Program-made: the position numbers and the translations under genes
Assembly (NCBI RefSeq): GCF_001306055.1
Contig: NZ_LGHJ01000008.1
Coordinates: 30,001-62,000 of the forward strand
Reading direction: 5' to 3'
Length of the DNA stretch: 32,000 nucleotides
Source of the DNA: Bellilinea caldifistulae
GTDB taxonomy: Bacteria > Chloroflexota > Anaerolineae > Anaerolineales > Anaerolineaceae
In this document: piece after piece, positions 2,641 through 24,768 of the stretch
How positions within the stretch are numbered: the stretch's first letter is position 1
How the letters are laid out: each line of letters begins with the position of its first letter
Notes under the pieces: generated by a model
Databases searched by the model: none
What the model saw: the letters and a program-made list of their open reading frames with translations, nothing else
What the model was told of the DNA's origin: nothing

Positions 2641-4713
2641 TCACTCCAACCCCATCGCCCGGATGGCGGCGTTGATCGGGTCGGTATAGAAAGTCGCCTG
2701 CAGCTTGTTCAACACCTCATCCGGTACATCGGCCAGGTCGCGCTTATTTTCGCTCGGTATCAGCACATACTTGGCGCCGGAATCCAGCGCCAATTGCATC
2801 CGCTCGGTCAGGTTGGTTACTTTCAGCAGCAGTCCCTGAACGCTCATCTCGCCCAGCACCACCGTTTGCGCCCGGACAGGTTTGCCTAGCAAGGCTGAGA
2901 CCAACGATACGAAGAACGCCACCGCGGTTTCAGCGCCTTCCTTGGCTTGCTGCAGGTTAATCGCCTGCATGCTGAAATCGTAGCTTTTCAAATCGAGAGA
3001 GATACCCAATTTGTGGATGTTGGCTTTCAGATAAGCCTCGGCGGTCTTGATCCCTTCTTTCATGGCTTTCGATAGGTTGCCCAAGGGGATCATGCGCCCA
3101 GAGCCAGGATTGATCTGGGTTTGTAACAGGAACAAAGCCAACTTGCCGCTCTCGGCATCTCGACCAATGGTATAGACTGCTCCTGGAGCCAGGGTAATAG
3201 GTTCAATGATCAAACCGCCCCCCATCTCTGGCACTCTGACAAATTGCTCGTTGCCGGTTTCCAGGTCGCGATAGGAGAAATTCACGTCCCAGTACTCGAC
3301 GCCGGCGATTTTGCGCAATTGCTCCTTGACCCGCCGGCGCATTTCCATGGCAAAGATGAGGTATTCTTCGACCTCTTCTTTGGTAACCCGCCCATCCGGA
3401 TGGATCAGCTTAATCAAACCGGAAACTGTTTTCCGAACCGCTTTCTGGTCACGTCCGGTCAGATGGGAGCCAAATTGGAAGTACCTTTCGGGCACATCGG
3501 TGTAGCTGTCCTTGCGCAATGCCCGCATCACTTCAGCCAGATAATCCGAAACAAACCCGAAATGGTTGGTGTAGAACTCATCGCGCGTCTTTTGCAGTTC
3601 CCAACCAGGCAGGTAAAAGTGCAGGCGGTCGAAGAAGGCTGCGTCCATCTCCTTTGGCATGGGATAGAAAAGGTGCGAGGTTTTTACAATTGTTTCGATA
3701 TCGCCATCCAGATTGCCCAGGAAAACAATTGACCCTTCGGCGGTGATGATTTCGGAGCCGCGCGAGAAGTTGCCATCTTCCATGAACCCCTTCATGATGT
3801 TGATGCCATTTTTATCTTTGAAGCTGACCCCAGCCGCCTCATCAAAAGCCACAGTGTCCCACAAAGCGACCAAACCCTTGGCGCCCGTCGCCAGGTTGAC
3901 AAACATCTGAGCCACGGTTGTTTGCCCACCAGAAACAAGATGGCAGTACGGGCTGACTTGCTGATAAACAAAACTCTTACCCGTTCCCCGGGGGCCCAAC
4001 TCCACCATATTGAAGTTCTTTTCAACCAGTGGAATCAAACGGGAGAGATAGAGCAGCTTGACCCGATGGGTGAAATAGGGGTGGGTGGGCTCCAAACCCA
4101 GGCTGCGTAAGATAAAGTTGATCCATTCATCCCGGCTGAACTGCGCACGCGCAGCCCGGAAGCGGTCGAGTGAAAGGTTTGACACCTGGATCGGTTTCAA
4201 GTTTTCGATGACAAATGGGCGGTTTTGTCCCCGAAAGATGTAGGACTCGTCATATCCTAGACTCACCTCCGCCCAAATCCCACCTTGAACCAGGCGCTCG
4301 TGTTTGCGCAGATAGGCTTCGTCGATGTTTACAAAATCGAGGTTAATGTTAGCCAGCTCAGCCCAATACTTATCATGCGTCTCGACCAGGCGTACTTTCA
4401 CCTTATCAATGATTTCATAAACGCCATGCTGCTTGATGCGCGACTTTACCATTTCCCGCTCGCTGGGTTTGACGTACTTCGTCCGCAGCGTTTCACGCAC
4501 GTACTGCAAGCCTTCTTCGATGATCTCCGGGTCGGTTGTAGCGCAGTACTTGCCCAAGAGAAACTCGATCACAAACATCGGCACGCTAAACGCAGATCTC
4601 ACCCGGCGGAGCAGGTCTTTCCGCACCACCAAACCCGGAAACGCCTCTGTGGCTCGCTGATCGATTTCATCCAAGACCAAGGTTTCTAAACTGTTCATAA
4701 GCTCATCCTTCAC
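2641..4713 (-). CDS. brxL: BREX Lon-like protease/ATPase BrxL
   Basis: 690 aa. N-terminal FPGLVVRKDLLRRV, P-loop GPRGTGKS and a C-terminal Lon-protease-like region. It is the last gene after pglZ. The GTG at 4713 is the track start. The ATG at 4698, preceded by AAGGA, is an alternative. Confidence 0.9.
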   Translation of the reverse strand: MKDELMNSLETLVLDEIDQRATEAFPGLVVRKDLLRRVRSAFSVPMFVIEFLLGKYCATTDPEIIEEGLQYVRETLRTKYVKPSEREMVKSRIKQHGVYEIIDKVKVRLVETHDKYWAELANINLDFVNIDEAYLRKHERLVQGGIWAEVSLGYDESYIFRGQNRPFVIENLKPIQVSNLSLDRFRAARAQFSRDEWINFILRSLGLEPTHPYFTHRVKLLYLSRLIPLVEKNFNMVELGPRGTGKSFVYQQVSPYCHLVSGGQTTVAQMFVNLATGAKGLVALWDTVAFDEAAGVSFKDKNGINIMKGFMEDGNFSRGSEIITAEGSIVFLGNLDGDIETIVKTSHLFYPMPKEMDAAFFDRLHFYLPGWELQKTRDEFYTNHFGFVSDYLAEVMRALRKDSYTDVPERYFQFGSHLTGRDQKAVRKTVSGLIKLIHPDGRVTKEEVEEYLIFAMEMRRRVKEQLRKIAGVEYWDVNFSYRDLETGNEQFVRVPEMGGGLIIEPITLAPGAVYTIGRDAESGKLALFLLQTQINPGSGRMIPLGNLSKAMKEGIKTAEAYLKANIHKLGISLDLKSYDFSMQAINLQQAKEGAETAVAFFVSLVSALLGKPVRAQTVVLGEMSVQGLLLKVTNLTERMQLALDSGAKYVLIPSENKRDLADVPDEVLNKLQATFYTDPINAAIRAMGLE

Positions 4714-4716
4714 TGC

Positions 4717-7269
4717 CTAGCTCAGATCGCGCCCTGCCCGGATGGACATCCCATGGGCAAAATTATAGTGGGTGTCCTGATCCAACACCTGAAGTGGGAT
4801 TTGGGTTCCAGCCGCGATGATCGGCTCTCGATTCAAGAAGAGGGTAACGCTGATAGGCTCTGCGCTGCCGGGTTTGATCTCTATCGTTTTCTCATTGGAG
4901 CGCGGCGCCTCCGGCTCTCCGAGGAATACGCGCAACTTCAATCCCTCAACCTGGGTGTCGAACAGGTCTTTCGGCGCTGGCGTCTCCGGCGTTAATTCGA
5001 CTTTAACCGCCAGCGTAAAGATCTCGGTCTTGGGCAATTCCACCGTGACGCTCATCCGGCGCGGGACGGTCATCGAGACGAATTTCAAGTGGGGAATGAC
5101 CACTTCTTGAAGCGTGGCGCCGCCGTGAAAGAAACGCCCTGGCTCTGCAAAGCTGCGCAAGCCGGGAGGTAAGGCTACCTGCCAGTTTGGGTCCAACGGA
5201 AAGGGCACACTGGCAACCGGCAGTTTTTGACCCGCGTCGGTGATGCCCCAACGAGCAGCGCTCAACACCAACTGGCTCTTGTTCAGCTCGAGCGGCTGGA
5301 TGTTGGCGTTGGCGTTGAGCAAGACAAAGCCATGATCGGTCACCACATGGATCTCAGAATAACCCCAGCTTTTTAGCTTGCGGATTGCCCTGCCGAGGGT
5401 TGCGATCAGTTCTTCGAAATGCAGGATGACCTCATAGTTCGCCCCGTGACCCAGCTCATCCACGCCCCGATCGAACAACACCAGCATTTGGGGCAAAGAA
5501 GCAGGCTTTTCGGCGAGCTCCTGAAGATGATGGATCTCATCCTTCCGATTGCCCTTGCTGTCCACACCCAGATGGCTCGCTCCCGCAGCCTCAAGCAGCT
5601 TCCAACGATAAGCGCGGTAGCTCAAATCCCCACCGGCAGCCGGGGATGCCAAGACCGGTTTGCCCCCTTTGATCTCTAAATGAACGTCTGGAGTGGGCAG
5701 CAGGCTGGTCATCCCCACCCAGGTCTCGGAGGGCACATTCGCCAGGTAACCGCTCAGCTCGCCTTCCACCAAACTGGCGCGCAAGGCAGCCGCCAGATCG
5801 AAGCGCAAGGCGTCCACTACCAGGATCGCCTTGCGCGCCGCGCTGCTGGAAAAGAGCTCTGAAGCTAGTTCGGAGACCGATAGGCAGCCGCTGGGCGGCC
5901 ATTGAGCGGCATCGCGAAAGGCAGTGTAAAATGCCTGTCCGACGGCGTCCAGATATTTGGTATAAAAGTGATCGGCTGCCGCTGCCAGAAGCTCCATCTC
6001 ATCCGCCCGGAGCGCCGCAGCCATCAGCCGCCAGTGAGCCAGGTCGATCTGGTGCCAGTCCTTTATGTACGCCTCAACCAGATCGGAGGGCGTGAGCGAA
6101 GGATTGAGCACCCCGAGCACTTTGTCCACTCGCTCGACAAGATGGATCAACTCGAGCGCCAGCCCCCAGCCCAGGAGATCGCCCGTCCCCGATGCCCAGA
6201 AGCCCTTGACCTCTTCTTCGGCAATCCCCCGCTTTTCAATCAGGTAGCTGCGCAGTTCGCTTTCGCTTTGGGCAACCTGTTTCAATCCTTGAAGGTATTT
6301 CTTCCAACGTTCCGCCGCCAGCGAGTACAAGGCGTGCGGAGTCCCCGCTTTGCCTTCAGCCCAGGCGCGCAGATCGACCTTGGCATCCATTTTAAATTCC
6401 CAGCGCCGGTAAGTCTCCAGATGATCCCGGTCGCGTTGCCAGTGAGCCAGGAGCTTGCGCGCCGCGGCGCGGTGCTTCGGCTTTGGCAGTTCGGCAGATA
6501 AAGGATAATCCGCCGGGCTTCCGGTGGCTTCGTAGATCTCCTGGGCAATCAGCGACCTGACAAAAGCGGCTGCCCAGCCTTCCGGATCGTCCGGCAGGGA
6601 GGCGGTTTCGCCATATTGGGCAGCGACCTGGGAGCAAAACTCATCGGCGATGCCCTGTTGCTGGAGCATTTCCCATTCGTGCGCTGGATCAGCCAGGAAG
6701 CGCAGCAGGCGTTCCATTATATCCCCAACGATGCTCTCCTCGATCGCCGCGGCGGTCAGCACTTTCGACTTCCAAAAGGCTTCATCGCGGTCCAAATTGG
6801 TGCGCACATATTTCGCCAGCAGCGATTCGCCTCCGCCGCGCCAGAGGGCGTCCTGAGCGGCGCGGCTGCTGGGCAATGGCACGCCGTGTTTGCGCAAAAA
6901 AGCGAACAAGGTCGGTTGCCGCCCGTCGATCAGCCAGGTCAATCCCGAAAAGTGATATTCCATGAGCGGGTCGAGCGGCTCGATCTCCCACAAGGCGCTG
7001 GTCAAATCGCCGCGGTCGAATGGCAGCCAGAGAATCGCCTTCTTCCCTTGCGCAGGACCCGCCTCAAGCGCCCATTTCAGCCACAGCGCGCCGTGGTGAA
7101 GCTCCGGCTGATAAGCCAACAAGCAAACCCCTTGTTCAGCCAGTGATTTTTCGACCGCCGGCAAAAGGTGAGAAAACTCGGCGTTCCCGTCGAACCACAA
7201 TGCCACAGACGCCCGCGCATCGCGGGTAAACAGCTCGATGAAATCAGCAGTGATCCACTTCAAGATCAC
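4717..7269 (-). CDS. pglZ: BREX alkaline-phosphatase-superfamily protein PglZ
   Basis: 850 aa with the PglZ-type HVVTDHGF motif. The GTG start overlaps the upstream stop as GTGA. Its position between pglX and brxL is canonical. Confidence 0.92.
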   Translation of the reverse strand: MILKWITADFIELFTRDARASVALWFDGNAEFSHLLPAVEKSLAEQGVCLLAYQPELHHGALWLKWALEAGPAQGKKAILWLPFDRGDLTSALWEIEPLDPLMEYHFSGLTWLIDGRQPTLFAFLRKHGVPLPSSRAAQDALWRGGGESLLAKYVRTNLDRDEAFWKSKVLTAAAIEESIVGDIMERLLRFLADPAHEWEMLQQQGIADEFCSQVAAQYGETASLPDDPEGWAAAFVRSLIAQEIYEATGSPADYPLSAELPKPKHRAAARKLLAHWQRDRDHLETYRRWEFKMDAKVDLRAWAEGKAGTPHALYSLAAERWKKYLQGLKQVAQSESELRSYLIEKRGIAEEEVKGFWASGTGDLLGWGLALELIHLVERVDKVLGVLNPSLTPSDLVEAYIKDWHQIDLAHWRLMAAALRADEMELLAAAADHFYTKYLDAVGQAFYTAFRDAAQWPPSGCLSVSELASELFSSSAARKAILVVDALRFDLAAALRASLVEGELSGYLANVPSETWVGMTSLLPTPDVHLEIKGGKPVLASPAAGGDLSYRAYRWKLLEAAGASHLGVDSKGNRKDEIHHLQELAEKPASLPQMLVLFDRGVDELGHGANYEVILHFEELIATLGRAIRKLKSWGYSEIHVVTDHGFVLLNANANIQPLELNKSQLVLSAARWGITDAGQKLPVASVPFPLDPNWQVALPPGLRSFAEPGRFFHGGATLQEVVIPHLKFVSMTVPRRMSVTVELPKTEIFTLAVKVELTPETPAPKDLFDTQVEGLKLRVFLGEPEAPRSNEKTIEIKPGSAEPISVTLFLNREPIIAAGTQIPLQVLDQDTHYNFAHGMSIRAGRDLS

Positions 7270-9047
7270 GCCATGCCTCCCGGGGATTTCTCCACACCGG
7301 TCACCCTGCGGATTTCGGCGATGATCGCCGCTTCCCGGATCGAGAGGAACTTCTCATACACCTTTCGCAATTCAGCGTGTCCCAAGTCTTCCGTCGCTGC
7401 GCGCATTATTTCCAAGGCATCTGGACCGATGAAATGCGGCTGCAACAGTTCAGATTTCGCTCCGGCGGGGAAGATGTCCTCGCTCTGCAAGTATTCCGCC
7501 GGCGACTTGGCTTTGATCTTGTTGTTGGTCTCATCGCTGATCAGGGTGCGATTCACGATGGTGTTGATCTCCACCCGTTTCGTAAAGCCACGCTGTTGTA
7601 GATACCCGCGTGGGAAGATGTGGTGATCCTGCAAATCCTGGAGCTGGATGCTTTCGCCCCTGCGCCAGTCCCTGGCATTGCGCAACGCCAGCAGGCAAAA
7701 GACACCGCTGTAGACGGCGCTGCCGGTGGTCGCCGAATCGCGAATGGTATAGCTCGGGGAACCAATCAGAGCTTTGGCTTCGGTGAAAACGGATGGCTCC
7801 GGGCTGCCCTTTTGCCAGTATTCCAGCATTTCGATGTAATCTTTGCGCGACTTGCTCTCCACCGCGCTGGAGTAGCGCTCCATGAACACATTGCACCAAT
7901 ACCAGCGGCGCAAATCGGCGCGCGCCGCTTCCCCCAGCTTCTTCTCCTCGATGGTGGCGCGCAAGGCAGCCAGGGTGGGCAGCAAGCCAGAGCCAGGCAG
8001 CCACTTCGGATCGAAAGCGCCAAAACCATCCGGCGCAACGAGGGTGACCAATTCCAAAGCCTTTTCCATCGCCTGGGCTGCCCGGCGCCAATCTTTTTCA
8101 AAGTTTTCTGGGTCCAGATCGATCAGCTCTCGAGGAGTTGGTTTTACGTCTCTCAGCAGCGCCAGCGTGCGCAGCAATAAGACGCCAAAGTTGTTCTTTT
8201 CCGCCTTCCCCTCAGACCAGGCTGCCAGGCGCGGGTGCGCCTTACAGGCTCTCTCCCACAGGTTGTGCAGTTTGATGCCATGCCGATACAGCCGGGCGGT
8301 GAGCAGATCGTAGACCGAGAGCGCCACCCCGGTCGAATTGAGCTTTTCGAAAATGGCGCACACCCGACCGATGGCTTCGGAGTCAGAGTCTTCTACGCGG
8401 GGCAATTCCACCAGGGGAACCTGGTAGTTCTGGAAGGCGGTCACCAGATCCGTCCACGGATCGCGCCACTTGTCGCGGAAGTTCTGGTGGTCCGCTGGGC
8501 TGTTCTCGCGCAACCAGTCGTCCAAGCCATCGCGCCATTTGAGAAAATCCCGCGAGTTGAGCAAGCGCGTGCAGGGCAGGACGAGCTTCTGATACTGGGT
8601 CTGCTCGGTGAGCAAATCGGCCAGCTCGTCCTCGGCTCGGTCAAAGACGATTTCATCGTCATAGACATCTTCCAGAAGGAGTTTCAAGTCCAGAAAGAAC
8701 CATCTTCTGCGGCTGGAGTCTTTCAAGCCCAGGTTGGGCGCTGTCAGGGCGTAGAGCAAGGCGGTGATCCGTTGTTGCCCGTCCAGCACCAGCGATTCGG
8801 GCCTTGGTTGGTGGTATTGCGGCTTTGCGCCGCGAAAAAAGCGCGGCGCAAAAGGCGGGTTGTTCGGGTCGCAGCGCAGCAGAAGCAACGATCCGATGTA
8901 GTAACGCCGCACGATGGAGCGCAGCAAATCCGCCACCTCCTCGCGGCTCCAGACAAACTCGCGCTGGAACTCGGGGAGGCACACCGCCCCTTTGTGGGCT
9001 TGCTCGATGATGTTCACCAGATTGCGCTTATCGGGAAAAAGCTCCAC
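7266..9047 (-). CDS. brxU: DUF262 + DUF1524 (GmrSD family) type IV restriction enzyme, BrxU-like
   Basis: 593 aa. N-terminal DUF262 motifs QREFVW and DGQQRITAL. C-terminal His-Me finger-like DHHIFP...NRTLISDETNNKI. It has its own SD, AGGAGGAG, 4 nt before the GTG. Its stop overlaps the pglZ start by 4 nt. Confidence 0.85.
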   Translation of the reverse strand: MELFPDKRNLVNIIEQAHKGAVCLPEFQREFVWSREEVADLLRSIVRRYYIGSLLLLRCDPNNPPFAPRFFRGAKPQYHQPRPESLVLDGQQRITALLYALTAPNLGLKDSSRRRWFFLDLKLLLEDVYDDEIVFDRAEDELADLLTEQTQYQKLVLPCTRLLNSRDFLKWRDGLDDWLRENSPADHQNFRDKWRDPWTDLVTAFQNYQVPLVELPRVEDSDSEAIGRVCAIFEKLNSTGVALSVYDLLTARLYRHGIKLHNLWERACKAHPRLAAWSEGKAEKNNFGVLLLRTLALLRDVKPTPRELIDLDPENFEKDWRRAAQAMEKALELVTLVAPDGFGAFDPKWLPGSGLLPTLAALRATIEEKKLGEAARADLRRWYWCNVFMERYSSAVESKSRKDYIEMLEYWQKGSPEPSVFTEAKALIGSPSYTIRDSATTGSAVYSGVFCLLALRNARDWRRGESIQLQDLQDHHIFPRGYLQQRGFTKRVEINTIVNRTLISDETNNKIKAKSPAEYLQSEDIFPAGAKSELLQPHFIGPDALEIMRAATEDLGHAELRKVYEKFLSIREAAIIAEIRRVTGVEKSPGGMA

Positions 9048-9096
9048 AGACTCCTCCTACGAGATGAAATCAATCATTTCAGCCAACTTCATTCTC

Positions 9097-12000
9097 TCAG
9101 CGCCCCTCCGGCGCCAGCAGGCTATCCAGGTCTTTCTTGGAGAGCACCTGCGCCGCCAGGAGACCCAGGCGCTGCACGGGGGCGATGTTGACCCGCACGC
9201 CGTCGTTGATGTCCGGATCCCAACCCACGGGTTGCTCCTCTGGGCTCTTCCAGGGCACCCAGATGCGCGCCTCGCGCTGGCGCCCCTCTTGCAGCAATCC
9301 CAGCCGACGGTCGAACTCCTCCACGTCGGCGATCTTCTCTTCCAGTTCGGCGGCGCGGTCCAGCGCCCGGCGGTCCAGCGCAGCCTGGTTCTGCGCCTCG
9401 CCGAGCTGGCGGCGCAGTTCTTTCAGGGTCTCGCTCACGTAGCGCGAGCGCAGCAGCTTCAGGCGATCTTTGTCGAACTTGTGATAATAGACGATTGCCT
9501 GAAAAGCGCCCTTGGGGCTGGTCAGGTGCCAGGCGATGGGGCGTTTTTTGAATTGGGAAACATGGCGCTTGAAGAACTCATCTTTGAACCAACGGTCAAG
9601 GGTGATTGGTTTATGTTTTCCCCATCCATCGTGTTTCTTCAATCCCAAAAAAATTCCAATTTCGCGTTCTACAATATGACCGTGTTCAGCCCCAAAAATA
9701 TTGTCTAAATATTGACTAAAACGTTTCGCGAGTACTTCTTCGCCTGTTCCAGGCGTAATTGGTATTATGCCGTCAACATCTATTTGCTCCGAATCTTGGG
9801 TAATCTTACCTCCGGCTTGCTCAACAACTTGTCGAGTAGGCCAATGAAATCCTAACGCTGCAAGCAATTTGGCTGAAAGATAATCCTGGACTAATTCATT
9901 AACTTCTAATGTGCATTTAAAATTCTCAACAATCCACAGTTCTCTTAGAAGCCAATAAACTGAAATTGGATGAATTGACAAGTTGGTAGATAGTTCTTCG
10001 ACAAGTGTTTCAGGTGGTATTGACAACTTAAAATTTGAAAAATTATTAACCACAACATTATTATTTGGATCTGGTGAATTATCTTTAGTTTGGTTAAGAC
10101 TTTCTGCATATTTGGGGACACCTGACAAATAAGCTCTGAGACGGTCCTTTAGATGTTCTAATTCACGATTTGATAGCTGAATACGATTATGGGAACGTAG
10201 TGCCTCATAGATATGATCAGGTAGCGTCTCCATTTCAGGAAGGGCCTCTATAATTGCGTCATACCCCTCAACTAATGGGTACCAAGATACAGGTAAACCG
10301 ATTTGCTCATAAACATGCTCTACGGTTTTTGGTGAGAGCGAATAATAATTGACTATTTTAAGCTCACACCAACCCTCCAATATATGCATCCAGCATTGGC
10401 GGAGATATCTATCGAAGATCTCTTGAATTATGGTCTCGGAAAAAGATCCTGTTGTTTTTAATTGATTATAAACATAGTCTCGGCTTGTAATATTTTCCCC
10501 TTCAAAAAGTACCCGCAAACGTAATATTATTTGAACAACTTTTGAAAGTTCATCATCCCTTAATTCCTCTAATGGAGGAACTGGAAGACTTTCGATATTT
10601 CCACTTGTATATGAATAATTCGGGGATACAAATGATAATAGATAACTTGCTAAGCGCGAATTTAATATTACAAGGATCAACCATCGATATAAAATCGATG
10701 TGTCTAAGTAGCGGCTTGTATCAAGAAAGATGAATCCTTTAGGTAGATACTTTGCATATACACGATAGCTGCTGAGTTTTGAGAATGTTAACCCCTCAAG
10801 CTTATAATAACGTGTGTTTTGAGGTCTTGACTTAAGTTTTCCATTTGCGTTTATGAAATTTCTTAATAAATGTCCATCTTCTCCCCATAAAACAACTAGG
10901 TTTGGAGATGTGTAATAACTGCGTGAATCTCCTCCGCTCATACACGGTACCCACCCCGGAGGCTCTGGATGGAATGATGTTACCTCCCACCATAGCCTTG
11001 TCCATCTTGGATTGTCTCCTGTAGCCAACCCGGATTTTGCAGAAGCGTATTTACCAAGCACTATATCTGAGCCAAGTATTTCCAACAATTCATCCCCTGC
11101 CCAATAACTTAAAGTTGCCCAAGGAAGTTTTACGAACCATCTTTGGCTAGCAATAAAAAATCTATCGCGTGGTCTATTCTTTATTACATCAAGCAACATT
11201 GATTGTTTATCTGTTCTATCATAAACCCTAAGATATTGACCAGAATACTCACTATCCATTTTTCCAGCAATGAAAAGACATATGTTTACAGCTGCGCCAC
11301 TAATCTCTGAGAAGCCTCCCTGACCAATATCGGCGTACATTTTCATCACAGCGTTATTGAAAAAATGCTTTCTTGCTTCGAAGAATGTCTCTGTATACCA
11401 ATATACTCGCTGAACAACCATTGAAATTAGCCCATCTTCAGAAATTAGCGATACGCATCTATCAATGAATGCAGCAAAAAGATCATTCGACGATAAAGGA
11501 TATTTTGTTGTCAAGAAGCCCCTGAGTGTATCCCCAAAGGCGAGACTACCCATATAAGGAGGATTTGTACATACAACATCATAACGTCGTGACAGTAAGC
11601 TCAATAAACCAATACTCTTCCATCCCTCCATACCAAAGATACGGCTTGTTAAATTCGTGCTTTGGTTTTCAACGTTGAAAACTTCCCGCAGGCGTTGGAA
11701 CAAAACCTGCTTGTATCCTTCCCAATCCCTGGCGGACGAGATCAGCGGGGCATCCCGATCCTCTTTCGCCTTCATTTTCCGAATGGCATCCTCGACCTCT
11801 TCTTCCACCCGCACCAGGCTGCCCAGCTCGCGCACGTGCTCCAGCGAATGCCAGATGGCGCGTATCGCCTCCTGGATGGCAGGGTCATCTTGATACTGGG
11901 CAAGCAGGTTTTCATACGCCTCGCCGCGGCTGAGCACGGCGTCGGCGACCACCAGGTTCAGGCGCGGCGGTCCGCCGGACTCATCCCAGCCCAGCTCTTT

Positions 12001-13158
12001 GGCTTTGAGATAGAGCGCCAGCGCCGCCAGTTGCACCGCCCGTAGGTCGATGTCGATGCCGTGCAGGTTGTTTTCGAGGATGACGCGCGCCGTCTGCTCG
12101 GCGGGCACCGACCAGCCGGCGGGCAGGCGACCATCGGCTTCCATCTGGCGTTCCTCTTTATATAACTGCGCTAGCAGGTCGAACGCCACTACTAGAAAAT
12201 GCCCGCTGCCCATCGCCGGGTCGAGCAGCTTCCACTCTTTGAGCGGTTTGGGCAGGCGGGTGTGCGGCGTGGCGGGGGTGACGTAATAGGGCCAGGCTTC
12301 TTTGGCGGGCGAATCGGGGTACATCTCCATCCAATAGGCGCCGATGGAATTCTGCAGCAGGAAGTCCACCATGTAGCGCTCGGTGTAGAGGGCAGTGTAG
12401 GTGGCGATATCCGGTCCGGTGTATTTCTTGGTCTTCTTCAGCTTTTGGGTGAAGGATTCTCCGGCGGTGACTTTCTCCTTCTCCTCGGTCTGGAAGTACT
12501 GATACACCCAGCCCAGCAGCTCGTCGGTGCGGAAGGCGTCCTCGGGCAGCTCGTTCAGCCGGTCAACCACCATCCGCAAGGTGCGGAAGGAAGGCCAGAC
12601 CTGGGCGTAAGGATCCGCCGGGTCAAATAGCACGCCGATCTCTTCGGTGACCGTGGCGCAGGCTTGCAGCAGCCCTTCGCGCCAGAGCAGCTCTTCCGCC
12701 TGGGCGCCGTGGCGGTAGCGGCTCTCGCGGGAGCGCAAGGTCCACAGCCACTTGGAGCGCCCGCCGAACTCCGCCCGGCAGGTCACCGCTTCGGTGCGCT
12801 CGCCTTCGATCACCAGGTGGCCGCGCAGCTCCAGGCATTTCAACCCCACCAGCCGGTTGAGGTGGGTGTAGGCGGCTTCGCGGCGCACGGCTTCCAGGGC
12901 GCCGGCGAAGGAGCCGATCGACTCCTGCTCTTTTGCCAGGATGGCTTCCAGCTCGGCGCGAATTGCCCGTTCCTGATCGGTCAGATAACTAAGCTTCTCC
13001 ACCGGAACCGGGGAGTCTTTGCTCCCATCAAAACCCAGGCGGCGCAGCTCGCGCTCCAGGTCCTCTTCCAGCGTGCGGCGCAGCTCGATGATCAAAGGCT
13101 TCAGCCGCTTCTTGACCTCATCGCTCAATGCAGGGCGTCCGTTGACTGGCTGGCTCAT
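9097..13158 (-). CDS. pglX: BREX N6-adenine DNA methyltransferase PglX
   Basis: 1353 aa. Motif I is LLDPAMGSGHF (about 12.2 kb). Motif IV, NPPY, is encoded at 11554-11565. The conserved C-terminal region contains KKRPIAWHL. The ATGA start overlaps the brxC stop. Confidence 0.93.
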   Translation of the reverse strand: MSQPVNGRPALSDEVKKRLKPLIIELRRTLEEDLERELRRLGFDGSKDSPVPVEKLSYLTDQERAIRAELEAILAKEQESIGSFAGALEAVRREAAYTHLNRLVGLKCLELRGHLVIEGERTEAVTCRAEFGGRSKWLWTLRSRESRYRHGAQAEELLWREGLLQACATVTEEIGVLFDPADPYAQVWPSFRTLRMVVDRLNELPEDAFRTDELLGWVYQYFQTEEKEKVTAGESFTQKLKKTKKYTGPDIATYTALYTERYMVDFLLQNSIGAYWMEMYPDSPAKEAWPYYVTPATPHTRLPKPLKEWKLLDPAMGSGHFLVVAFDLLAQLYKEERQMEADGRLPAGWSVPAEQTARVILENNLHGIDIDLRAVQLAALALYLKAKELGWDESGGPPRLNLVVADAVLSRGEAYENLLAQYQDDPAIQEAIRAIWHSLEHVRELGSLVRVEEEVEDAIRKMKAKEDRDAPLISSARDWEGYKQVLFQRLREVFNVENQSTNLTSRIFGMEGWKSIGLLSLLSRRYDVVCTNPPYMGSLAFGDTLRGFLTTKYPLSSNDLFAAFIDRCVSLISEDGLISMVVQRVYWYTETFFEARKHFFNNAVMKMYADIGQGGFSEISGAAVNICLFIAGKMDSEYSGQYLRVYDRTDKQSMLLDVIKNRPRDRFFIASQRWFVKLPWATLSYWAGDELLEILGSDIVLGKYASAKSGLATGDNPRWTRLWWEVTSFHPEPPGWVPCMSGGDSRSYYTSPNLVVLWGEDGHLLRNFINANGKLKSRPQNTRYYKLEGLTFSKLSSYRVYAKYLPKGFIFLDTSRYLDTSILYRWLILVILNSRLASYLLSFVSPNYSYTSGNIESLPVPPLEELRDDELSKVVQIILRLRVLFEGENITSRDYVYNQLKTTGSFSETIIQEIFDRYLRQCWMHILEGWCELKIVNYYSLSPKTVEHVYEQIGLPVSWYPLVEGYDAIIEALPEMETLPDHIYEALRSHNRIQLSNRELEHLKDRLRAYLSGVPKYAESLNQTKDNSPDPNNNVVVNNFSNFKLSIPPETLVEELSTNLSIHPISVYWLLRELWIVENFKCTLEVNELVQDYLSAKLLAALGFHWPTRQVVEQAGGKITQDSEQIDVDGIIPITPGTGEEVLAKRFSQYLDNIFGAEHGHIVEREIGIFLGLKKHDGWGKHKPITLDRWFKDEFFKRHVSQFKKRPIAWHLTSPKGAFQAIVYYHKFDKDRLKLLRSRYVSETLKELRRQLGEAQNQAALDRRALDRAAELEEKIADVEEFDRRLGLLQEGRQREARIWVPWKSPEEQPVGWDPDINDGVRVNIAPVQRLGLLAAQVLSKKDLDSLLAPEGR
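9550..11680 (-). other. AT-rich block inside pglX (about residues 493-1203), a putative exchanged catalytic-loop/target-recognition segment
   Basis: Hand counts of 60-nt lines give 23% G+C at 10021-10080 and 40% at 11581-11640, against 58% at 11701-11760, 73% at 12661-12720 and 58% at 9481-9540. The reading frame is uninterrupted. Confidence 0.75.
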
Positions 13159-16100
13159 GCTTCCACCACCACCTCATAGCCTTCATCCAGTTTGGCTTGA
13201 ATCTCGGCGCCGATGCTCTGCCAGAAGGCGTCGAATTCATCGCGGCGCACAAAGCGGCGCCCGGTTAATTTCTCCCGCAAGCTCAGGCGGTGCACCTTCT
13301 GCTCGGGCTTCTCACCGCCATCGCCCACTTTCTTTTGGGCTTCCCGTTGCGCCTGCCATTCGCGCTCGCAGCGGTCGAAGATGGCTTTGCGGTAGCCCGG
13401 GATTGCCATGCGCAAAGCCTCCAGCTCGCTCACCTTGCGCTTTTCCGAGGCAGCCAGCAACTTGTCGGCGGTCTTCAGATCATCAATTGCCGGCAGCGCC
13501 AGCAGCGCATTCGCACCGAAGTACTCGTCCAGGATCGCCCGCTGGCGCGAGAGCCCCAGGCGGGTGAATGCTTCTGCCGCCTCGATCTCGGACTTCAAGG
13601 CGGCAATCGCCTGATCGCAACTGGCGTAGGCAGCCTGATAGACCTGGCGATAGCGATCCAGCACCGCCAACGCCGCCTCCTGGAGTTGTTTCCACTTGGT
13701 CATGATGTCTTTTACCCCTACGATGGCATCGAAATCCTCCAGATTTTCGCGCGCCTTCTTTCCCGCCTCGCCCTCGAAGACCGCCGGCGTGCTGCGGGCG
13801 TAATCCAGCGCAGCCACATAGGTCAGATAGGCGCGGTCGCGCCCCTGCTCGACGAAGGTCTCATACGTTTTGAGGAACGCCGCCACACCTTTCCAGCCTT
13901 CTTGATCCTCGATGAAGCGGCGCACACACGCCACCGGGTCGCGCTGCGCCAAGGCTTGGGCGGTGACCGGCTCAACCCGCTGGTAGGTCTCCGGCAGAGG
14001 CAGCTTGAGGTCGCGCACCCGCACGCGGATGGCGTTCGCCTGGGTCGTCATCTTCTGCCCCAGCTCGCGGATGCGCTCCGCCAGACCATGGGCGGTGTCC
14101 GGCAAGCCAACCTCGCCCAAGGCGATCAGCCCGTCTTTGGCTTGCTTCATCTCGTCGGGTTTCAAGCCGCCCACTGTGGGGTAGAAGCGTGTCTTTTTGA
14201 ATTTGGTCGGCTTGGTGAACGCCTCTTCGGCGCGCGGATCGGAGACATCGTAGATGGGTTGGTCAGAATCGGCTGGCTGCAGATGCACCGCGCCGCCGCG
14301 CAGCATGGCTGCCAGGGTCAGGCGCACCAGGGCTTCTGGCCAGCCGAAGGGAATTCGCTCGAAGCTCTCCAGGATCGCCTTGCCGTCCAGGTCGAGCCCT
14401 TCATCTTCGCGGCGCTTCAGCTCATCGAAGATCGCCTCCACCAGCGGGGCGCTGCGCATCAAATGGTCCTGGGCGTCGAACAGATCCAGCGCTGGGTCCA
14501 GCCGCGCCAGGTTTTTCGCCTTCGCATCCAGGTAACGGGCGATGTTCTTCTCGTCAAAGGCTTTGTCAGCGTCTTTGAAGCGCTCATACAGGTTGCCCGC
14601 TACCACGCCGACGAATTCCTGCGCGATGGCTTTCAACTCCTTGGATCCGTCCAATTCCGCCCGATCACCAGAGTAGTAGGCCACGCCTCTGCGCAGGCAA
14701 CTCTCCAGTAATCCGACGATGTGATTTTCCAGTGCCGCGCGCTCCTTTTCCTTTTCCTTCAACACCCGCACGGTCTCGTCGCTGCGGTCGTTGCGCCACT
14801 TGGGCAGTTGGGGCACTTTTTCCAACGCCTCCAGGCGTTTGAGCTTCTCGACCAGCGAGCTTTCGCCGGCTGCCACCCACCAGATCACCTTGCCGCGCAC
14901 ACCTTTGCCCAGGTTTTCGAGCTCGATCTCTTCGACTTTCGGCGCAGAGAGCGGGCTGGAAAGCTCCACCAGGATCTCGCCGCCGGTGTTGATCGGCTCG
15001 CCGTCCAGGCTGAGCGAGAAGGGGATGATCCCGGTTGAACCGAGCTGGATCTTGAAATCGCCGAGCTTCGAACGGGTGAGCACGCGCTCTTTTAGCAGCT
15101 CGGTGGCTTTGCGCTTTGCCACCCCAACGCCGTAGTCGCGAATCTTGTCGATGATATCTTCTTCGACCCCGCGTTCTTTTTCGCTCAGGTAGCGGTATTG
15201 CTCTGTGGCTTCGTCCCTGGCTACCAGACCGGCTTTCTGCAGGCGGTCGAGGGTCGTGCGGACATCATCACGCAGTTTTGCCAGGTCTACGTCTATTTCG
15301 CTTGCCAACAGTCGGGCGATAGTTTCGGGGGTGCGCGGCACCCACTCGACGCGCGAGATCAGCCACAGCGCTTTGAGCACCCGGCTAGGGGGGATCGGCG
15401 TGCCGGGGATCTGCTGGTCGGTCTCCCGGATGAGTTTAATGCCTGTGGTCCCCAGATAATCCGATGAACTGAGTTCATCAGTCACCTGGTCAAAGATCAA
15501 ATCCAGGGGCGCCAAGATCCCCAGGGGATCCTCCGCCAGCCGAATCAAGACTCCCTGGACGACTCCGATCATGCTGCGTTCCGTGCCAGAGAGCTTGAAG
15601 CCGCGCATGGCGTTGAACAGCTCTTGAACCAGGGGGACCATGTAGGGCAGGAAGGGGTAAGAAGCGCGAAAACTTTCCCTGCTCAGGACGGCTAACTCGC
15701 GCTCGATTTGCAGGCGGCTCAAGTCAGCAAGCTGACCTTCCTTGTACAGCTCATCCACAGCGCCCAGGTTCGCCTCGCGTTTGCGCAGCAGGCGTTCTTG
15801 CACCACCCGGCGCACATCCTCGCCGGTCAAGGTGATCTTGGTCGAAAAACGGGCGTCCAATTTGCCCAGGCTGCTCAACTTGAGGCCGGTGCGCTCGACC
15901 ACCTGATCTAAGGCTTCTTGCGAGGTGCAGATAAACCAGATCCGGCCGCGCCCCTGCACGCCGCACTGTTCGACGATGGCACGTAGTTCCTCAATACGGT
16001 CGTTGCTATCGCCAATAAACTGACCCATCTCATCGATGACAAAGATCAAATGCGGTTCGCGCGATTTTACCTTCGGTGCATAGCTTTCCAGATAGGCTGT

Positions 16101-16913
16101 AATCTCCTTGGCGAGAAGCTCCGGGGTGACGCGATTGTGATCGCGTTGATAGGTTGCGATCGTCTCTCTGGCGCTTGCAATGGGTTTATCCATCGCCTTT
16201 GCCAGCGCCTCGGCGATTTCGTCGCCGTAAAATCCGTGCTCGGGGCGGTCCGCCTGCCAGGGGCGCCCAGTCTGTTGGCGATATGCTTCAAGGAAAGCGT
16301 CGTAAAGCCCTTCGCTCTGCAATTTGCGCTCCAAGCGAGCCAACCAGATGGTGGGGGCCAGGTTCTGGCTCTCGTAGAATGTTCGCAAGCAACTCTCGGT
16401 GACCGATTCAGGATTGGCTTGATCCAGCCTGGACTTGATTTCAAACGCCAGAGTCTGACACCAGGCCTTGTTCTTGACCTCGGAAAGCGCAGCCTTCAGA
16501 TCGGAGGATAGGTACAGTGTAGGATCATCCAGATGCACCTGGAAGATATCAATAGCGGTTTTTTGATTTTCTAGGTCAACCACCTCATTAGCCAGCAGGT
16601 TGCCCAAAACCTTTGCCAGGTGGCTCTTGCCGCTGCCAAAAAAACCCGCAATCCAAACCGCCATCCCGTCGCCGCCATCGCCTGTTTTGATGCGTTGCTC
16701 CAGGCTGTAGGTGAAATTATCCAGAAATTTTCGCAATTCGCGTGCCAGCGCGTCGGTGATCACAAATTGCTTCAGATCTTCCAGAAGATTTGCCCGGTCG
16801 TAGACTTTGACAGCCGGCTCGATCCTTCTGGACAAGTCACGAGCGATGACATCGCGGATTTTCATTCTTTCATTGCTCATCTTAGATCCTCGCTGCTCGG
16901 TAGTTGTATCCAT
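13155..16913 (-). CDS. brxC: BREX P-loop ATPase BrxC/PglY
   Basis: 1252 aa with Walker A GFFGSGKSH. The likely true start is the ATG at 16880 (MSNERMKIRD...), 1 nt after the brxB TAA stop, which gives 1241 aa. Confidence 0.93.
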   Translation of the reverse strand: MDTTTEQRGSKMSNERMKIRDVIARDLSRRIEPAVKVYDRANLLEDLKQFVITDALARELRKFLDNFTYSLEQRIKTGDGGDGMAVWIAGFFGSGKSHLAKVLGNLLANEVVDLENQKTAIDIFQVHLDDPTLYLSSDLKAALSEVKNKAWCQTLAFEIKSRLDQANPESVTESCLRTFYESQNLAPTIWLARLERKLQSEGLYDAFLEAYRQQTGRPWQADRPEHGFYGDEIAEALAKAMDKPIASARETIATYQRDHNRVTPELLAKEITAYLESYAPKVKSREPHLIFVIDEMGQFIGDSNDRIEELRAIVEQCGVQGRGRIWFICTSQEALDQVVERTGLKLSSLGKLDARFSTKITLTGEDVRRVVQERLLRKREANLGAVDELYKEGQLADLSRLQIERELAVLSRESFRASYPFLPYMVPLVQELFNAMRGFKLSGTERSMIGVVQGVLIRLAEDPLGILAPLDLIFDQVTDELSSSDYLGTTGIKLIRETDQQIPGTPIPPSRVLKALWLISRVEWVPRTPETIARLLASEIDVDLAKLRDDVRTTLDRLQKAGLVARDEATEQYRYLSEKERGVEEDIIDKIRDYGVGVAKRKATELLKERVLTRSKLGDFKIQLGSTGIIPFSLSLDGEPINTGGEILVELSSPLSAPKVEEIELENLGKGVRGKVIWWVAAGESSLVEKLKRLEALEKVPQLPKWRNDRSDETVRVLKEKEKERAALENHIVGLLESCLRRGVAYYSGDRAELDGSKELKAIAQEFVGVVAGNLYERFKDADKAFDEKNIARYLDAKAKNLARLDPALDLFDAQDHLMRSAPLVEAIFDELKRREDEGLDLDGKAILESFERIPFGWPEALVRLTLAAMLRGGAVHLQPADSDQPIYDVSDPRAEEAFTKPTKFKKTRFYPTVGGLKPDEMKQAKDGLIALGEVGLPDTAHGLAERIRELGQKMTTQANAIRVRVRDLKLPLPETYQRVEPVTAQALAQRDPVACVRRFIEDQEGWKGVAAFLKTYETFVEQGRDRAYLTYVAALDYARSTPAVFEGEAGKKARENLEDFDAIVGVKDIMTKWKQLQEAALAVLDRYRQVYQAAYASCDQAIAALKSEIEAAEAFTRLGLSRQRAILDEYFGANALLALPAIDDLKTADKLLAASEKRKVSELEALRMAIPGYRKAIFDRCEREWQAQREAQKKVGDGGEKPEQKVHRLSLREKLTGRRFVRRDEFDAFWQSIGAEIQAKLDEGYEVVVEA

Positions 16914-17406
16914 CTTTCACCCCCAAAAAATGGAGGGCTGGTCCATTTTCGGTGCCTGGAAAGGGGATCACCAGGGTGTTGGTGATTTTTCCTTCGATGG
17001 CTTCCAGAAGGGCGGAATAACTGATCCAAGGGAATAAGGCTGCGGTATGTTTGCAGAGCAAAATAACATTTGGGTTACCTTTTGCCGCTTGCTGTATCTT
17101 GGCAACCGCTTCCCTCTGCACCAGGCTGGCGAGACTGCGCCGGGCATCGGGCGAGCCTTCTGCATCCAGTTTAAATGCCCTCTCCAATAAATTCCGCTCT
17201 TTCAGAGAGTCGAAAACCAGGGTTCGGAAATCCAATACGGCTATCTGGACCCCTTGCGCCTTCAATTCCTGAATGACTTCTTCGTAACCTGCTCGAAACG
17301 AAAGCTCTTCCTCGGGAGGGTAAATCACCAAAAGCGCGCCCCCTGCGTGGGCGCCGGTCAATAGTTGGGAGCGCAGTAGATTCAATTTATCATTGATCAG
17401 GCTCAT
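16882..17406 (-). CDS. brxB: BREX protein BrxB (DUF1788)
   Basis: 174 aa, of the size and position expected between brxA and brxC. SD GGGGGA lies before the ATG, 7 nt after the brxA stop. Confidence 0.85.
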   Translation of the reverse strand: MSLINDKLNLLRSQLLTGAHAGGALLVIYPPEEELSFRAGYEEVIQELKAQGVQIAVLDFRTLVFDSLKERNLLERAFKLDAEGSPDARRSLASLVQREAVAKIQQAAKGNPNVILLCKHTAALFPWISYSALLEAIEGKITNTLVIPFPGTENGPALHFLGVKDGYNYRAARI

Positions 17407-17413
17407 ATTCCCC

Positions 17414-18175
17414 CTACACCTTAGTCAACTCAAGGTAGATCACTCCACCTTGAGATTCGTAGCGAACATAACCTTGTTGGTCAAGTTCCTCGAGCGCTGC
17501 GATCACATCTCGCAAAGTAAGCCCCATAGCTGCAAACAATCCGTGCTCTGGCGCTTTCACTATCGGTTCGCCCCCTCCCAAAATCAATTGGATAGCAAAC
17601 AGAATGACCTGAGGCGAAATATAGGGTCTGCGGATTTCTTTTTTGGCGGAGCCGCTGGCGTATCCGCAATCGCGAACCGCGCTCAAATAATGCCGCGCAA
17701 TCCGTTTACGGGTGACTGGGTTCCAGGTTTTAATGACCGGATGCGCTTTCTCCATAAATTCCAACTCGCGCTCGATGTCGCTCGTCTCTCCTTCAAATAT
17801 CGGACCGGACAGTTTCGGCGCTAACCATCGCTGGGATAGCTCATAAGTCAGAGCATCATTCCAAAGCAGTAATGTGAACGCCAGCAAGTTGGCTTGATCC
17901 GGATTTGCAACTCTACGGAAAGACGACACAAATAATGTATTCGCCTTGGGAGTGTCCTTGCGGAAGTAGCGCTCAGCCAATTTCCGGTACACTTCTTTGC
18001 GGCTGGAAATACTGGCTCGTCTGAGGATATTATCCTCCAAGATTAGCCGGTGGAGATCTTCACGGGCGTTCTCAGGGTTGATGTAGTCGATCACGCCGCG
18101 CAGCTCCTCCAGCATGGCTCCTTGCCGGCTGAGCAGAGCGGTAATTTTTATGGAGCGAGGTTCCGATGAGTTCAT
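17414..18175 (-). CDS. brxA: BREX protein BrxA (DUF1819)
   Basis: I use the internal start M61 of the 313 aa track ORF (MNSSEPRSIKI...), which gives 253 aa. The ATG at 18175-18173 overlaps the TGA of the upstream HTH gene (ATGA). It is the first core BREX gene. Confidence 0.85.
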   Translation of the reverse strand: MNSSEPRSIKITALLSRQGAMLEELRGVIDYINPENAREDLHRLILEDNILRRASISSRKEVYRKLAERYFRKDTPKANTLFVSSFRRVANPDQANLLAFTLLLWNDALTYELSQRWLAPKLSGPIFEGETSDIERELEFMEKAHPVIKTWNPVTRKRIARHYLSAVRDCGYASGSAKKEIRRPYISPQVILFAIQLILGGGEPIVKAPEHGLFAAMGLTLRDVIAALEELDQQGYVRYESQGGVIYLELTKV

Positions 18176-18396
18176 GAGCGTTTGAGTCCTTCTGCTTGAA
18201 TAACCACATCTGCTTCGTCCAACCTTTGCCCGGCAATCCAGTTGATCAGAGTTGCACGGTGAAAACGCCAGTGCCGACCGACCTTCTGGCAAGGTATTTT
18301 GCCCTCCTGAGCTAGTTTGTATAGAGAGGAACGAGGAATGCGGAGATATTGACAAACTTCGTTGATGGTCATAATTTCAGGGAATTCCGTGGACAT
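18172..18396 (-). CDS. Small excisionase/MerR-type helix-turn-helix protein (HTH_17-like), first gene of the BREX operon
   Basis: 74 aa. MTINEVCQYLRIPRSSLYKLAQEGKIPCQKVGRHWRF matches the excisionase-family DNA-binding domain pattern. It is coupled to brxA through an ATGA overlap. Confidence 0.8.
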   Translation of the reverse strand: MSTEFPEIMTINEVCQYLRIPRSSLYKLAQEGKIPCQKVGRHWRFHRATLINWIAGQRLDEADVVIQAEGLKRS

Positions 18397-18466: not shown

Positions 18467-18696
18467 TTAGTTCCAGGTATGATTCTTAATCGTACAGGTA
18501 TTTCCAAGGAAAAGCAATATAAATGTGGACAACTTATTGTCGGTCTGGTTTTCTCCTCCCTGATTTAGGATTTTTGGATGATCATTCCATATAAACCCGC
18601 AAACCCTGACCCACAATACCTCTTGTTGGTCATCCCTGATAACGCCTCTTACCTCAATATTAAGAGAATTTAAGCCAAACATGACCGATTCCCCCC

Positions 18697-18726
18697 TTGC
18701 ACTGGATGGAAATTCTGTGATATACT
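18697..18726 (+). promoter_or_regulatory. Candidate promoter of the EspR-like operon
   Basis: TTGCAC (18697-18702), an 18 nt spacer, then TATACT (18721-18726). SD AAGGAAA lies before the ATG at 18785. A short CTGTG...CACAG inverted repeat flanks the -10 element. Confidence 0.35.
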
Positions 18727-18784
18727 TTTGACCACAGTATACATAACACGCCATTAATATATCATGTAGTAGCAAGGAAAAACG

Positions 18785-21437: not shown

Positions 21438-21466
21438 TTCCGGCATGATCGCCGGATGAAATAAAA

Positions 21467-21502
21467 GGACGGCCGCTAACTGGTCAAGGTCGCCGGCCGT
21501 CC
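21467..21502. terminator. GC-rich hairpin between the PAP2-like and SSB-like genes
   Basis: GGACGGCCG (21467-21475) pairs with CGGCCGTCC (21494-21502), with an 18 nt loop. The U-tract (TTTTATTT) lies on the minus-strand side only. A second 5 bp hairpin, CCGGC/GCCGG, lies at about 21440-21455. Confidence 0.3.
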
Positions 21503-21599
21503 GGGTGAGCAGGTGTTCATGGCGTTTCCGCCACGGATCGCTGCCCGCTTTAATTATAACCGATTTGGTAGTGAAGCTCCTCTTCTCAGGAGGCGGTAC

Positions 21600-24728: not shown

Positions 24729-24768
24729 AAAGACCAGACCTTTCTGAAGACTACGATTGCAGCGAGCA

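Follow-up and report, generated by a model that had tools for sequence, protein, structure and literature searches.

A probable exchangeable specificity cassette of low GC within the BREX methyltransferase gene pglX of Bellilinea caldifistulae

In type I hsdS subunits and type IIG (MmeI-family) enzymes specificity evolves via recognition domains that move between homologous frames, and as methylation and restriction specificity shift together such a swap is safe for the host. It has also long been noted that hypervariable cassettes in defence and surface-antigen genes are low in G+C content (GC), examples being modA with its DNA recognition domains (DRDs), hsdS and the O-antigen loci. Here we analyze pglX, the methyltransferase gene of a type 1 Bacteriophage Exclusion (BREX) operon, in a stretch of 32,000 nucleotides (nt) from Bellilinea caldifistulae (contig NZ_LGHJ01000008.1, positions 30,001 to 62,000 of the forward strand), which we term the window and by which all positions are numbered. 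We propose, with a probability of roughly 80%, that this gene has a hypervariable specificity cassette which is exchanged by homologous recombination, an AT-rich block being one of its alleles. In the modA genes of Haemophilus influenzae and pathogenic Neisseria, the centres of the DRD alleles are ~29-38% identical to each other between conserved flanks and significantly lower in GC than these flanks; the DRD is replaced en bloc via homologous recombination in the conserved flanks, and one allele occurs in different flanking backgrounds (PMC3311624, PMC1557822). In the characterized PglX/BrxX proteins the target recognition domain (TRD) is reported to be the most variable part, and specificity has been altered by engineering it (PMC11341690, PMC11842806). 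In our search of the literature on BREX PglX/BrxX, natural cassette alleles, a GC step inside the gene and exchange en bloc were nowhere described.

The gene under study is the following:

9097..13158, minus strand: pglX (brxX), BREX type 1 adenine methyltransferase and specificity factor, 1353 amino acids, intact by open reading frame (ORF) and translation

An exact-sequence look-up showed its product to be WP_061914281.1 of Bellilinea caldifistulae (Anaerolineae, Chloroflexota), annotated already as BREX-1 PglX. It matches the Pfam families Eco57I (3e-18) and MmeI_Mtase (1e-8) and the PADLOC PglX models (E = 5e-157), one of which spans residues 13-1331, and Salmonella PglX (8C45) aligns to it with E = 8e-88 (query 149-871 with residues 145-860, and query 1126-1286 with residues 1016-1184). 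The protein displays the four-part architecture of PglX, for which ~1200-1350 residues are expected, comprised of an N-terminal helical bundle, a methyltransferase domain (MTD), a TRD with spacer, and a region at the C terminus. Both motifs of gamma-class N6-adenine methyltransferases are present, namely motif I (GxG; DPAMGSG at codons 313-319, 12202-12222) followed by motif IV (NPPY at codons 532-535, 11554-11565).

In 300-nt bins the GC of 9601-11700 is 0.34-0.43 as against 0.58-0.70 on either side, and the GC at third codon positions (GC3) along pglX starts at ~0.8, drops to ~0.3 and returns. We located the junctions by a two-change-point maximum-likelihood fit on GC3, with a log-likelihood gain of ~187 units: the 5' change point is at codon 491 (support 487-501; window ~11685) and the 3' change point at codon 1193 (support 1183-1206; window 9543-9606). 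Outside and inside the block GC3 is 0.81 and 0.30 and total GC 0.64 and 0.38, respectively, and GC at first codon positions (GC1) is likewise lower in the block, falling from 0.68 to 0.48. Given that the remaining genes of the window have a GC3 of 0.54-0.74, it is the block that is anomalous and not its flanks. The initial annotation, made from the letters of the sequence, had placed an AT-rich block at 9550-11680 (residues 493-1203), which the GC bins and GC3 change points show to be right to within a few codons; it had also stated that the frame is unbroken over both junctions, as borne out by all 1353 codons being open, and that the upstream junction falls between motifs I and IV, which is where codon 491 lies, with motif I in the GC-rich part and NPPY in the AT-rich part. 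At the 3' junction we find the PIAWHL motif (codons 1207-1212). The gene is thereby divided as follows, with related loci designated by L numbers and database proteins by P numbers:

11686..13158, minus strand: GC-rich 5' part, codons 1-491, with the N-terminal helical bundle and the SAM (S-adenosylmethionine)-binding half of the MTD; GC3 0.80; conserved backbone, 91-94% identical in amino acids to L083, L084 and L001
11656..11700, minus strand: 5' compositional and recombination junction, codons 487-501, in a BrxX-specific insertion between motif I and motif IV
9580..11685, minus strand: AT-rich, putatively exchangeable cassette, codons 492-1193; GC 0.38, GC3 0.30
9541..9612, minus strand: 3' junction, codons 1183-1206, at a conserved WF..EFFKRHVSQFKKRPIAWHL motif
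9100..9579, minus strand: GC-rich conserved tail, codons 1194-1353; GC3 0.83; 97% amino acid identity to L083 and L084

Of 42 PglX loci surveyed in unrelated genomes, 41 have a middle whose GC lies below that of the flanks, with a median dip of 0.04, or 0.07 among those with an N-terminal GC of at least 0.55. The largest dip in this survey is 0.18 (L006), with 0.15-0.16 in L010 and L059, compared to ~0.26 in the window, and the middles of L089, L091, L125 and L003 are GC-rich with a GC3 of 0.6-0.7. Given the small size of the dip in the survey and these GC-rich middles, a weak dip is a general tendency of PglX, and the extreme step is specific to the Bellilinea-like clade and tied to allele exchange. 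A constraint of the domain, under which unrelated GC-rich genomes should show the same dip, had been named as the alternative to a swap; it is contradicted by the same four loci.

To compare ancestries the three segments of PglX were searched separately, using a word-indexed search over 5.8 billion proteins and an exhaustive phmmer search over 1.84 billion representatives, and the DNA of the relatives was retrieved and compared. The N-terminal 490 residues have many relatives at 93%, 70%, 67% and lower identity. In contrast, codons 539-1200 have only nine matches among the 5.8 billion proteins, the best being 32% identical over half its length. A scan of a genome collection gave as the nearest a Thermodesulfobacteriota metagenome-assembled genome at 57%. 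With the last 309 residues we recovered fragments whose 93-97% identity starts only at FFKRHVSQFKKRPIAWHL, each of them being different upstream; thus P0133, P0136, P0138 and P0140 part from the window upstream of the 3'-junction motif. The same pattern is seen in DNA. The genes brxA-brxB-brxC (13155..18355) are 85-90% identical in nucleotides to those of L001, L006, L084 and L085. From brxA-brxC into pglX, L001 and L006 follow the window collinearly at 85-88% nucleotide identity; their homology ends at codon 538 and restarts in L006 at codon 1194; in L084 and L085 it ends at codon 461 and restarts at codon 1190; in L083 it restarts at codon 1171; in L007, L008 and L009 it starts at codons 1177-1179; and in L004 it too ends at the 5' junction. 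Between these limits the DNA of the relatives is in every case AT-rich (GC 0.31-0.47) and unrelated to that of the window; for L001 and L006-9 the total GC of the middle amounts to 0.31-0.45.

Intact PglX proteins of 1329-1366 residues are encoded by L083, L084, L086, L089, L091, L125 and L010. Among the eight intact full-length ORFs compared, three (window, L083 and L084) have a strongly AT-rich middle, with a GC3 of 0.29-0.36 against 0.78-0.85 in the flanks. The amino acid identity of the window PglX to three of these relatives changes along the protein:

N-terminus (1-460): L083 94%, L084 93%, L089 63%
C-terminal half of the MTD (539-660): L083 28%, L084 30%, L089 44%
TRD (661-870): L083 26%, L084 26%, L089 61%
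Spacer (871-1044): L083 19%, L084 24%, L089 27%
Codons 1045-1170: L083 41%, L084 38%, L089 53%
Tail (1194-1353): L083 97%, L084 97%, L089 71%

Hence, among close relatives the flanks are 91-97% identical and the centre 19-50%, and the nearest neighbours are incongruent between the segments: the N-terminus and tail, at 93-97%, are closest to L083 and L084, and the TRD, at 26% to these, is closest to the distant L089 (61% by segment comparison, 65% by tblastn), which is GC-rich throughout (GC3 0.62-0.87). Pairwise comparison revealed at least five distinct alleles of the recognition region (window, L001, L006, L083 and L084/L085), which are 19-37% identical and all AT-rich. The L083 allele is found again in an independent sample (L009, 91% nucleotide identity across the AT-rich part), and L084 and L085 are 99.98% identical to each other.

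The 5' limits of pairwise homology are spread over codons 460, 484, 536-538, 589, 597, 648 and 661. Between the window and L001 or L006 identity falls from ~0.89 to ~0.75 at codon ~481-490, though DNA homology reaches codon 538, and the divergence at four-fold-degenerate sites shows steps in the same regions:

Window against L001, 5' side: 0.21 (50/238) over codons 1-485 and 0.63 (10/16) over codons 486-538
L001 against L006, 5' side: 0.41 in the flank and 1.0 (11/11) in the cassette
Window against L083, 5' side: 0.08-0.24 over codons 1-455 and 0.64-0.78 over codons 456-538
Window against L083, 3' side: 0.17-0.21 in the tail and 0.77-0.83 over codons 1100-1193

Synonymous divergence thus steps up 3-4 fold at both GC junctions (Fisher p of 6e-4 and 2e-6 for the window against L083), from which it follows that the stretch bearing NPPY, while conserved as protein, is part of the old, exchanged segment. 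In L083 and L084 the 5' junction lies farther upstream, at ~codons 400-461, which matches an earlier drop of GC there. The recombination junctions coincide with the GC change points. In the comparison of the window with L006 we also observed that synonymous divergence over pglX codons 1-485 climbs toward the cassette (0.29, 0.38, 0.53 and 0.48 per 120 codons), as expected for linkage to a long-lived polymorphism or for older recombination scars. Further, the metagenome contigs of relatives repeatedly end or begin in the AT-rich block or at the 5' junction (ends of L001 and L004/L005, starts of L007-L009), as would be expected from several alleles coexisting per sample or from low coverage of AT-rich DNA.

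P0401, a protein from a metagenome, matches the window PglX at 1351 of 1353 residues and belongs to loci L132 and L133, which are 90.1% identical to the window across 23 kb. Within this comparison lies the following tract:

13629-9418, minus strand: ~100% identity to L132/L133 over 4.2 kb, covering the 3' end of brxC and pglX codons 1-1246

It contains mismatch-free stretches of 2772 and 1433 nt; beyond it the identity to L132 is 92-99% down to ~7857 and ~87% elsewhere, the surrounding 19 kb standing at ~87% in all. The backbone of L132 is nearest to L001 (94%, many of its bins reaching 98-100%) and L084 (96%), both of which bear other alleles. The comparison with L132/L133 thus finds one allele on two backbones and three alleles on one type of backbone, and the pglX allele has recently been transferred en bloc with crossovers in the brxC 3' end and the pglX tail. 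An in-frame, domain-level swap with retention of the flanks, as originally suggested, is accordingly supported by the incongruent neighbours of the separately compared segments, the synonymous steps, the presence of the allele on a diverged backbone and the differing alleles on one backbone; the exchange is broader than had been proposed, being a standing polymorphism of at least five alleles and not a one-off event. A second divergence hotspot relative to L132 (identity 0.67-0.77 in surroundings of ~0.87), also of lower GC, is situated at ~18650-19860 upstream of brxA.

To delineate what the cassette encodes we took the domain limits of the window PglX from alignment to the solved structures and published domain maps. 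In Salmonella PglX these are a helical bundle (1-227), MTD (227-661), hinge (654-659), TRD (662-849), spacers (850-960) and a C-terminal region (961-1225) (PMC11341690); in E. coli BrxX they are MTD (211-650), TRD (651-837) and C-terminal domain (838-1205) (PMC11842806). By this mapping the cassette contains:

11545..11700, minus strand: motif IV stretch, codons 487-538, with NPPY; conserved as protein, with synonymous sites saturated between alleles
11179..11544, minus strand: C-terminal MTD half with the hinge, codons 539-660; identity of 28-30% to L083/L084 and 44% to L089
10549..11178, minus strand: TRD, codons 661-870, by alignment to 8C45 residues 662-849; 26% identical to the alleles on sister backbones
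10027..10548, minus strand: helical spacer, codons 871-1044, which diverges most of all parts, with 18-27% identity to all relatives
9580..10026, minus strand: first part of the C-terminal domain, codons 1045-1193, containing IHPISVYWLL; conserved in the family, yet AT-rich and allele-specific

Codons 1045-1170 in the last of these are 38-41% identical among the three full-length AT-rich alleles, compared to 56-83% among GC-rich relatives. Judged from the alignment, every part of PglX known to contact DNA lies in the cassette: besides hinge, TRD and spacers it holds that half of the MTD in which motif IV and the loop region for reading the last base are found, and it reaches into the first part of the C-terminal region. 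Left to the backbone are the last 160 residues, the SAM-binding half of the MTD and the N-terminal bundle, this last being a proposed interface to other BREX proteins (PMC12839542).

We envisage that Bellilinea-like BREX islands share a common GC-rich backbone made up of brxA-brxB-brxC, pglX from codon 1 to ~460-490, pglX codons ~1194-1353 and pglZ-brxL, on which deeply diverged alternative middles would sit. Ordinary homologous recombination would carry these middles between backbones, with crossovers in the conserved coding stretches at both sides, i.e. from LGSLVRVEEEV to NPPYMGS on the 5' side and at EFFKRHVSQFKKRPIAWHL on the 3' side, and some farther out in brxC and the pglX tail. As PglX has been found experimentally to set the motif for methylation and defence alike (PMC11341690), a change of cassette is expected to retarget both together: its replacement should alter the 6-bp, non-palindromic BREX motif used for self-methylation and phage exclusion, with the putative contacts to BrxB/C/Z, namely the N-terminal bundle and the tail, remaining constant. 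From the function of the TRD in the solved PglX/BrxX proteins the alleles are likely to differ in the DNA motif that they recognize, and they may be maintained by phage-driven diversifying selection.

As for the source of the low GC, we regard it as an even call that the cassettes were imported, having been resident in a pool of lower GC within their own PglX subfamily. The drop in GC1 from 0.68 to 0.48 favors such an import, as do other low-GC, non-variable genes in the island:

418-2562, minus strand: helicase directly after brxL, of low GC (GC3 0.38), matching PADLOC PDLC03002 with E = 3e-240
23910-25735, minus strand: two low-GC ORFs of 272 and 302 amino acids, GC3 0.43-0.44, no Pfam match; codon-usage correlation with the block r = 0.25 and 0.56

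These non-variable genes imply that plain import of low-GC DNA does occur here. A composition resembling that of the helicase had earlier been taken as a hint of a common donor. In relative synonymous codon usage the block does correlate with the helicase (r = 0.60), as it does with ORF 24827-25735 (r = 0.56), and it is anti-correlated with most other genes. The likeness is, however, one shared with other low-GC ORFs, and the histories relative to L132 differ, the block being 100% identical and the helicase ~82-92%, i.e. at the level of the backbone. We accordingly abandoned the common donor: the resemblance is one of shared low GC only, and the block and helicase did not move together in the latest event.

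The following points weigh against our reading of the block. 1) The phmmer search recovered no donor for codons 597-1044, its best matches being 33-43% identical, and the word-indexed search none for codons 539-1200 (best 32%); tblastn of each allele segment against ~130 loci also gave no donor above 65%. 2) The closest relative of the TRD, on the metagenome contig L089, is GC-rich. 3) The alleles of the clade are nearly equal in their low GC3 (0.29-0.36) though unrelated, which is a poor fit to several independent donors. 4) The allele-specific change of motif is deduced from other PglX proteins. 5) The pglX of some relatives is disrupted (three ORFs in L006, no ORF in the middle in L002), so that part of the diversity might be decay or assembly error. 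Thus, of the view that the middle came from a different, lower-GC lineage, the different ancestry is supported; the searches recovered no lower-GC donor, and the nearest TRD relative is GC-rich. Regarding the broken genes themselves, pglX occupies 4240-8309 of L006 as three ORFs, 11752-13217 of L002 lacks a mid-pglX ORF and brxC is split in L001 (6279-10004), reflecting either pseudogenes or assembly errors.

Alternatively, though we think this doubtful, the AT-richness might have been made in place. Alleles that are kept for long by phage-driven balancing selection and too diverged to recombine or form heteroduplexes would escape GC-biased gene conversion or repair and drift to an AT-biased mutational equilibrium, with the freely recombining flanks staying GC-rich and whole alleles still being shuffled between backbones. 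Such a process would account for five alleles with one low GC3 despite 19-37% identity, for a dip found in almost every PglX and greater where the host is GC-rich, and for GC boundaries that equal the limits of homology between alleles. It also agrees with the GC-rich nature of the nearest TRD relative of the window, with codons 1045-1170 of every AT-rich allele being nearest to GC-rich members of the subfamily and not to PglX of low-GC genomes, and with the failure to find a low-GC donor among ~15 billion proteins. On the other hand, the strong drop in GC1 implies long residence at low GC, and both the helicase and the ORFs at 23910-25735 are low in GC yet not hypervariable, being ~82-92% identical to L132 like the backbone. 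If decay in place were true, pglX would amount to a clean natural experiment in which gene, strand and expression level are held equal and the step falls exactly where homology ends, and it would offer another explanation for the low GC of modA DRDs, hsdS and O-antigen loci.

We consider it very improbable that there was no swap at all and that low GC is an intrinsic compositional or amino acid constraint of the recognition region, with one history for the whole gene: the small dip across the PglX survey, and the larger ones in L010 and L059, would fit, but orthologous middles can be GC-rich, the segments differ in their nearest neighbours, synonymous divergence steps at the junctions and an identical allele occurs with a backbone diverged by ~12%. 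Silent-cassette switching is known for type I hsdS and has been suggested for some BREX loci. A programmed, phase-variable or shufflon-like exchange of the expressed cassette with silent copies by a site-specific recombinase appears just as improbable here, in spite of a perfect 18-bp palindrome, GTTTTCAACGTTGAAAAC (11665-11682), lying exactly at the 5' junction and GC change point, for which ~0.12 occurrences are expected by chance per 32 kb. The palindrome has one mismatch in L006 and is missing from L001, L083 and L084; not being conserved in relatives and being accounted for by the codons for VFNVEN, it was rejected as a recombination site and is probably there by chance. Searches of the 32-kb window (tblastn of PglX, blastn of the block) found no second pglX fragment, silent or inverted copy or repeat of the block, and there is no recombinase in or beside the operon, the sole integrase-like ORF being an rve-type transposase 13 kb off. 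These absences, the crossover points that vary among allele pairs and the tract that extends into brxC point to homologous recombination and not to programmed switching. That the block is foreign DNA joined in by mis-assembly, or is degenerating under relaxed constraint, as contigs ending or starting in it (L001, L007-9) and the frameshifted pglX of some relatives might suggest, is the least probable of all, for the same PglX (1351/1353) is present on two independent metagenome contigs and in the NCBI records of the isolate, all 1353 codons are open, solved PglX structures can be aligned along the length of the block, NPPY and the TRD elements being preserved, and the L083 and L084 alleles are intact as well; occurrence of the same allele on two backbones in independent assemblies excludes an assembly chimera, and the block is not an assembly artefact.

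The type 1 operon brxA-brxB-brxC-pglX-pglZ-brxL is complete, with all six genes on the minus strand within 2641-18355. In addition to pglX the window contains:

17414-18355, minus strand: brxA, upstream BREX gene, conserved backbone
16882-17406, minus strand: brxB, upstream BREX gene, conserved backbone
13155-16913, minus strand: brxC, upstream BREX gene, conserved backbone
7266-9047, minus strand: GmrSD/BrxU-like type IV enzyme, downstream part of the BREX operon
4717-7269, minus strand: pglZ, downstream part of the BREX operon
2641-4713, minus strand: brxL, downstream part of the BREX operon

What lies between pglX and pglZ varies: the window, L007, L084 and L132 have a GmrSD_N (BrxU-like type IV restriction) gene, L006 a Mrr_cat nuclease (8315-9343), and L002 (14217-14883) and L003 (9247-9982, 12991-13425) PIN toxin-antitoxin genes. 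In distant relatives pglX is naturally split behind the methyltransferase domain into an N-terminal gene of ~680-694 codons and a C-terminal gene of ~500-667 codons, with a MNT/HEPN toxin-antitoxin pair between the halves in L003 (7208-12000); the N-terminal matches in the large database are mostly short forms of ~694 amino acids (e.g. P0087, P0102). The window further contains the rve-type transposase, which has helix-turn-helix domains (26859-28214, minus strand), and a block of small ORFs at 19187-23816, a position that in relatives is taken by genes of the SSB-like, HTH_17 and VRR_NUC-like kinds. Collinearity of this block with L001 and L132 suggests that a mobile island carries the BREX operon.

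To date, point or loop mutations introduced by engineering are the only means by which the specificity of BREX has been changed, and function was lost in several hybrids with swapped loops (PMC11842806). In nature PglX is cut at the FFKRHVSQFKKRPIAWHL motif and at ~45-130 codons upstream of NPPY, which points to a working unit of exchange that comprises half of the catalytic domain, the spacers and part of the C-terminal domain, beyond the TRD alone, and the natural junctions are candidates for building BREX systems with new motifs. The recognition module of BREX is polymorphic in populations of uncultured Anaerolineae, as expected under phage-driven frequency-dependent selection. The intragenic GC3 step also offers a system in which import from low-GC donors might be separated from AT decay in place of non-recombining alleles.

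The window PglX has the same four-part architecture and motifs as Salmonella 8C45/8Q56 and E. coli 9EWZ. In these characterized proteins variability is known from conservation scoring and engineered point or loop changes, and their identity to the window PglX is low and the alignment partial. The closest documented analogue of the cassette is the set of recognition-domain alleles of type III modA. In both genes conserved 5' and 3' coding flanks enclose a centre of low identity and lower GC, and the same allele occurs on differing backbones; in the present case the L132, L001 and L084 backbones, 94-96% identical, bear three alleles. Some modA DRDs match those of other species, and the best match of the pglX cassette is the TRD of L089 at 61-65%. 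There are, however, several differences: pglX belongs to BREX and not to a type III restriction-modification system, its cassette is ~700 codons long as against ~200-250, it has neither phase-variable repeats nor uptake sequences, and its hosts are environmental Anaerolineae. Moreover, the pglX cassette takes in the NPPY half, the spacers and part of the C-terminal domain, such that the catalytic domain itself is chimeric. The same feature sets it apart from type I hsdS and the type IIG enzymes, for in pglX the recognition module is fused within a 1353-residue BREX methyltransferase and would move together with half of the catalytic domain.

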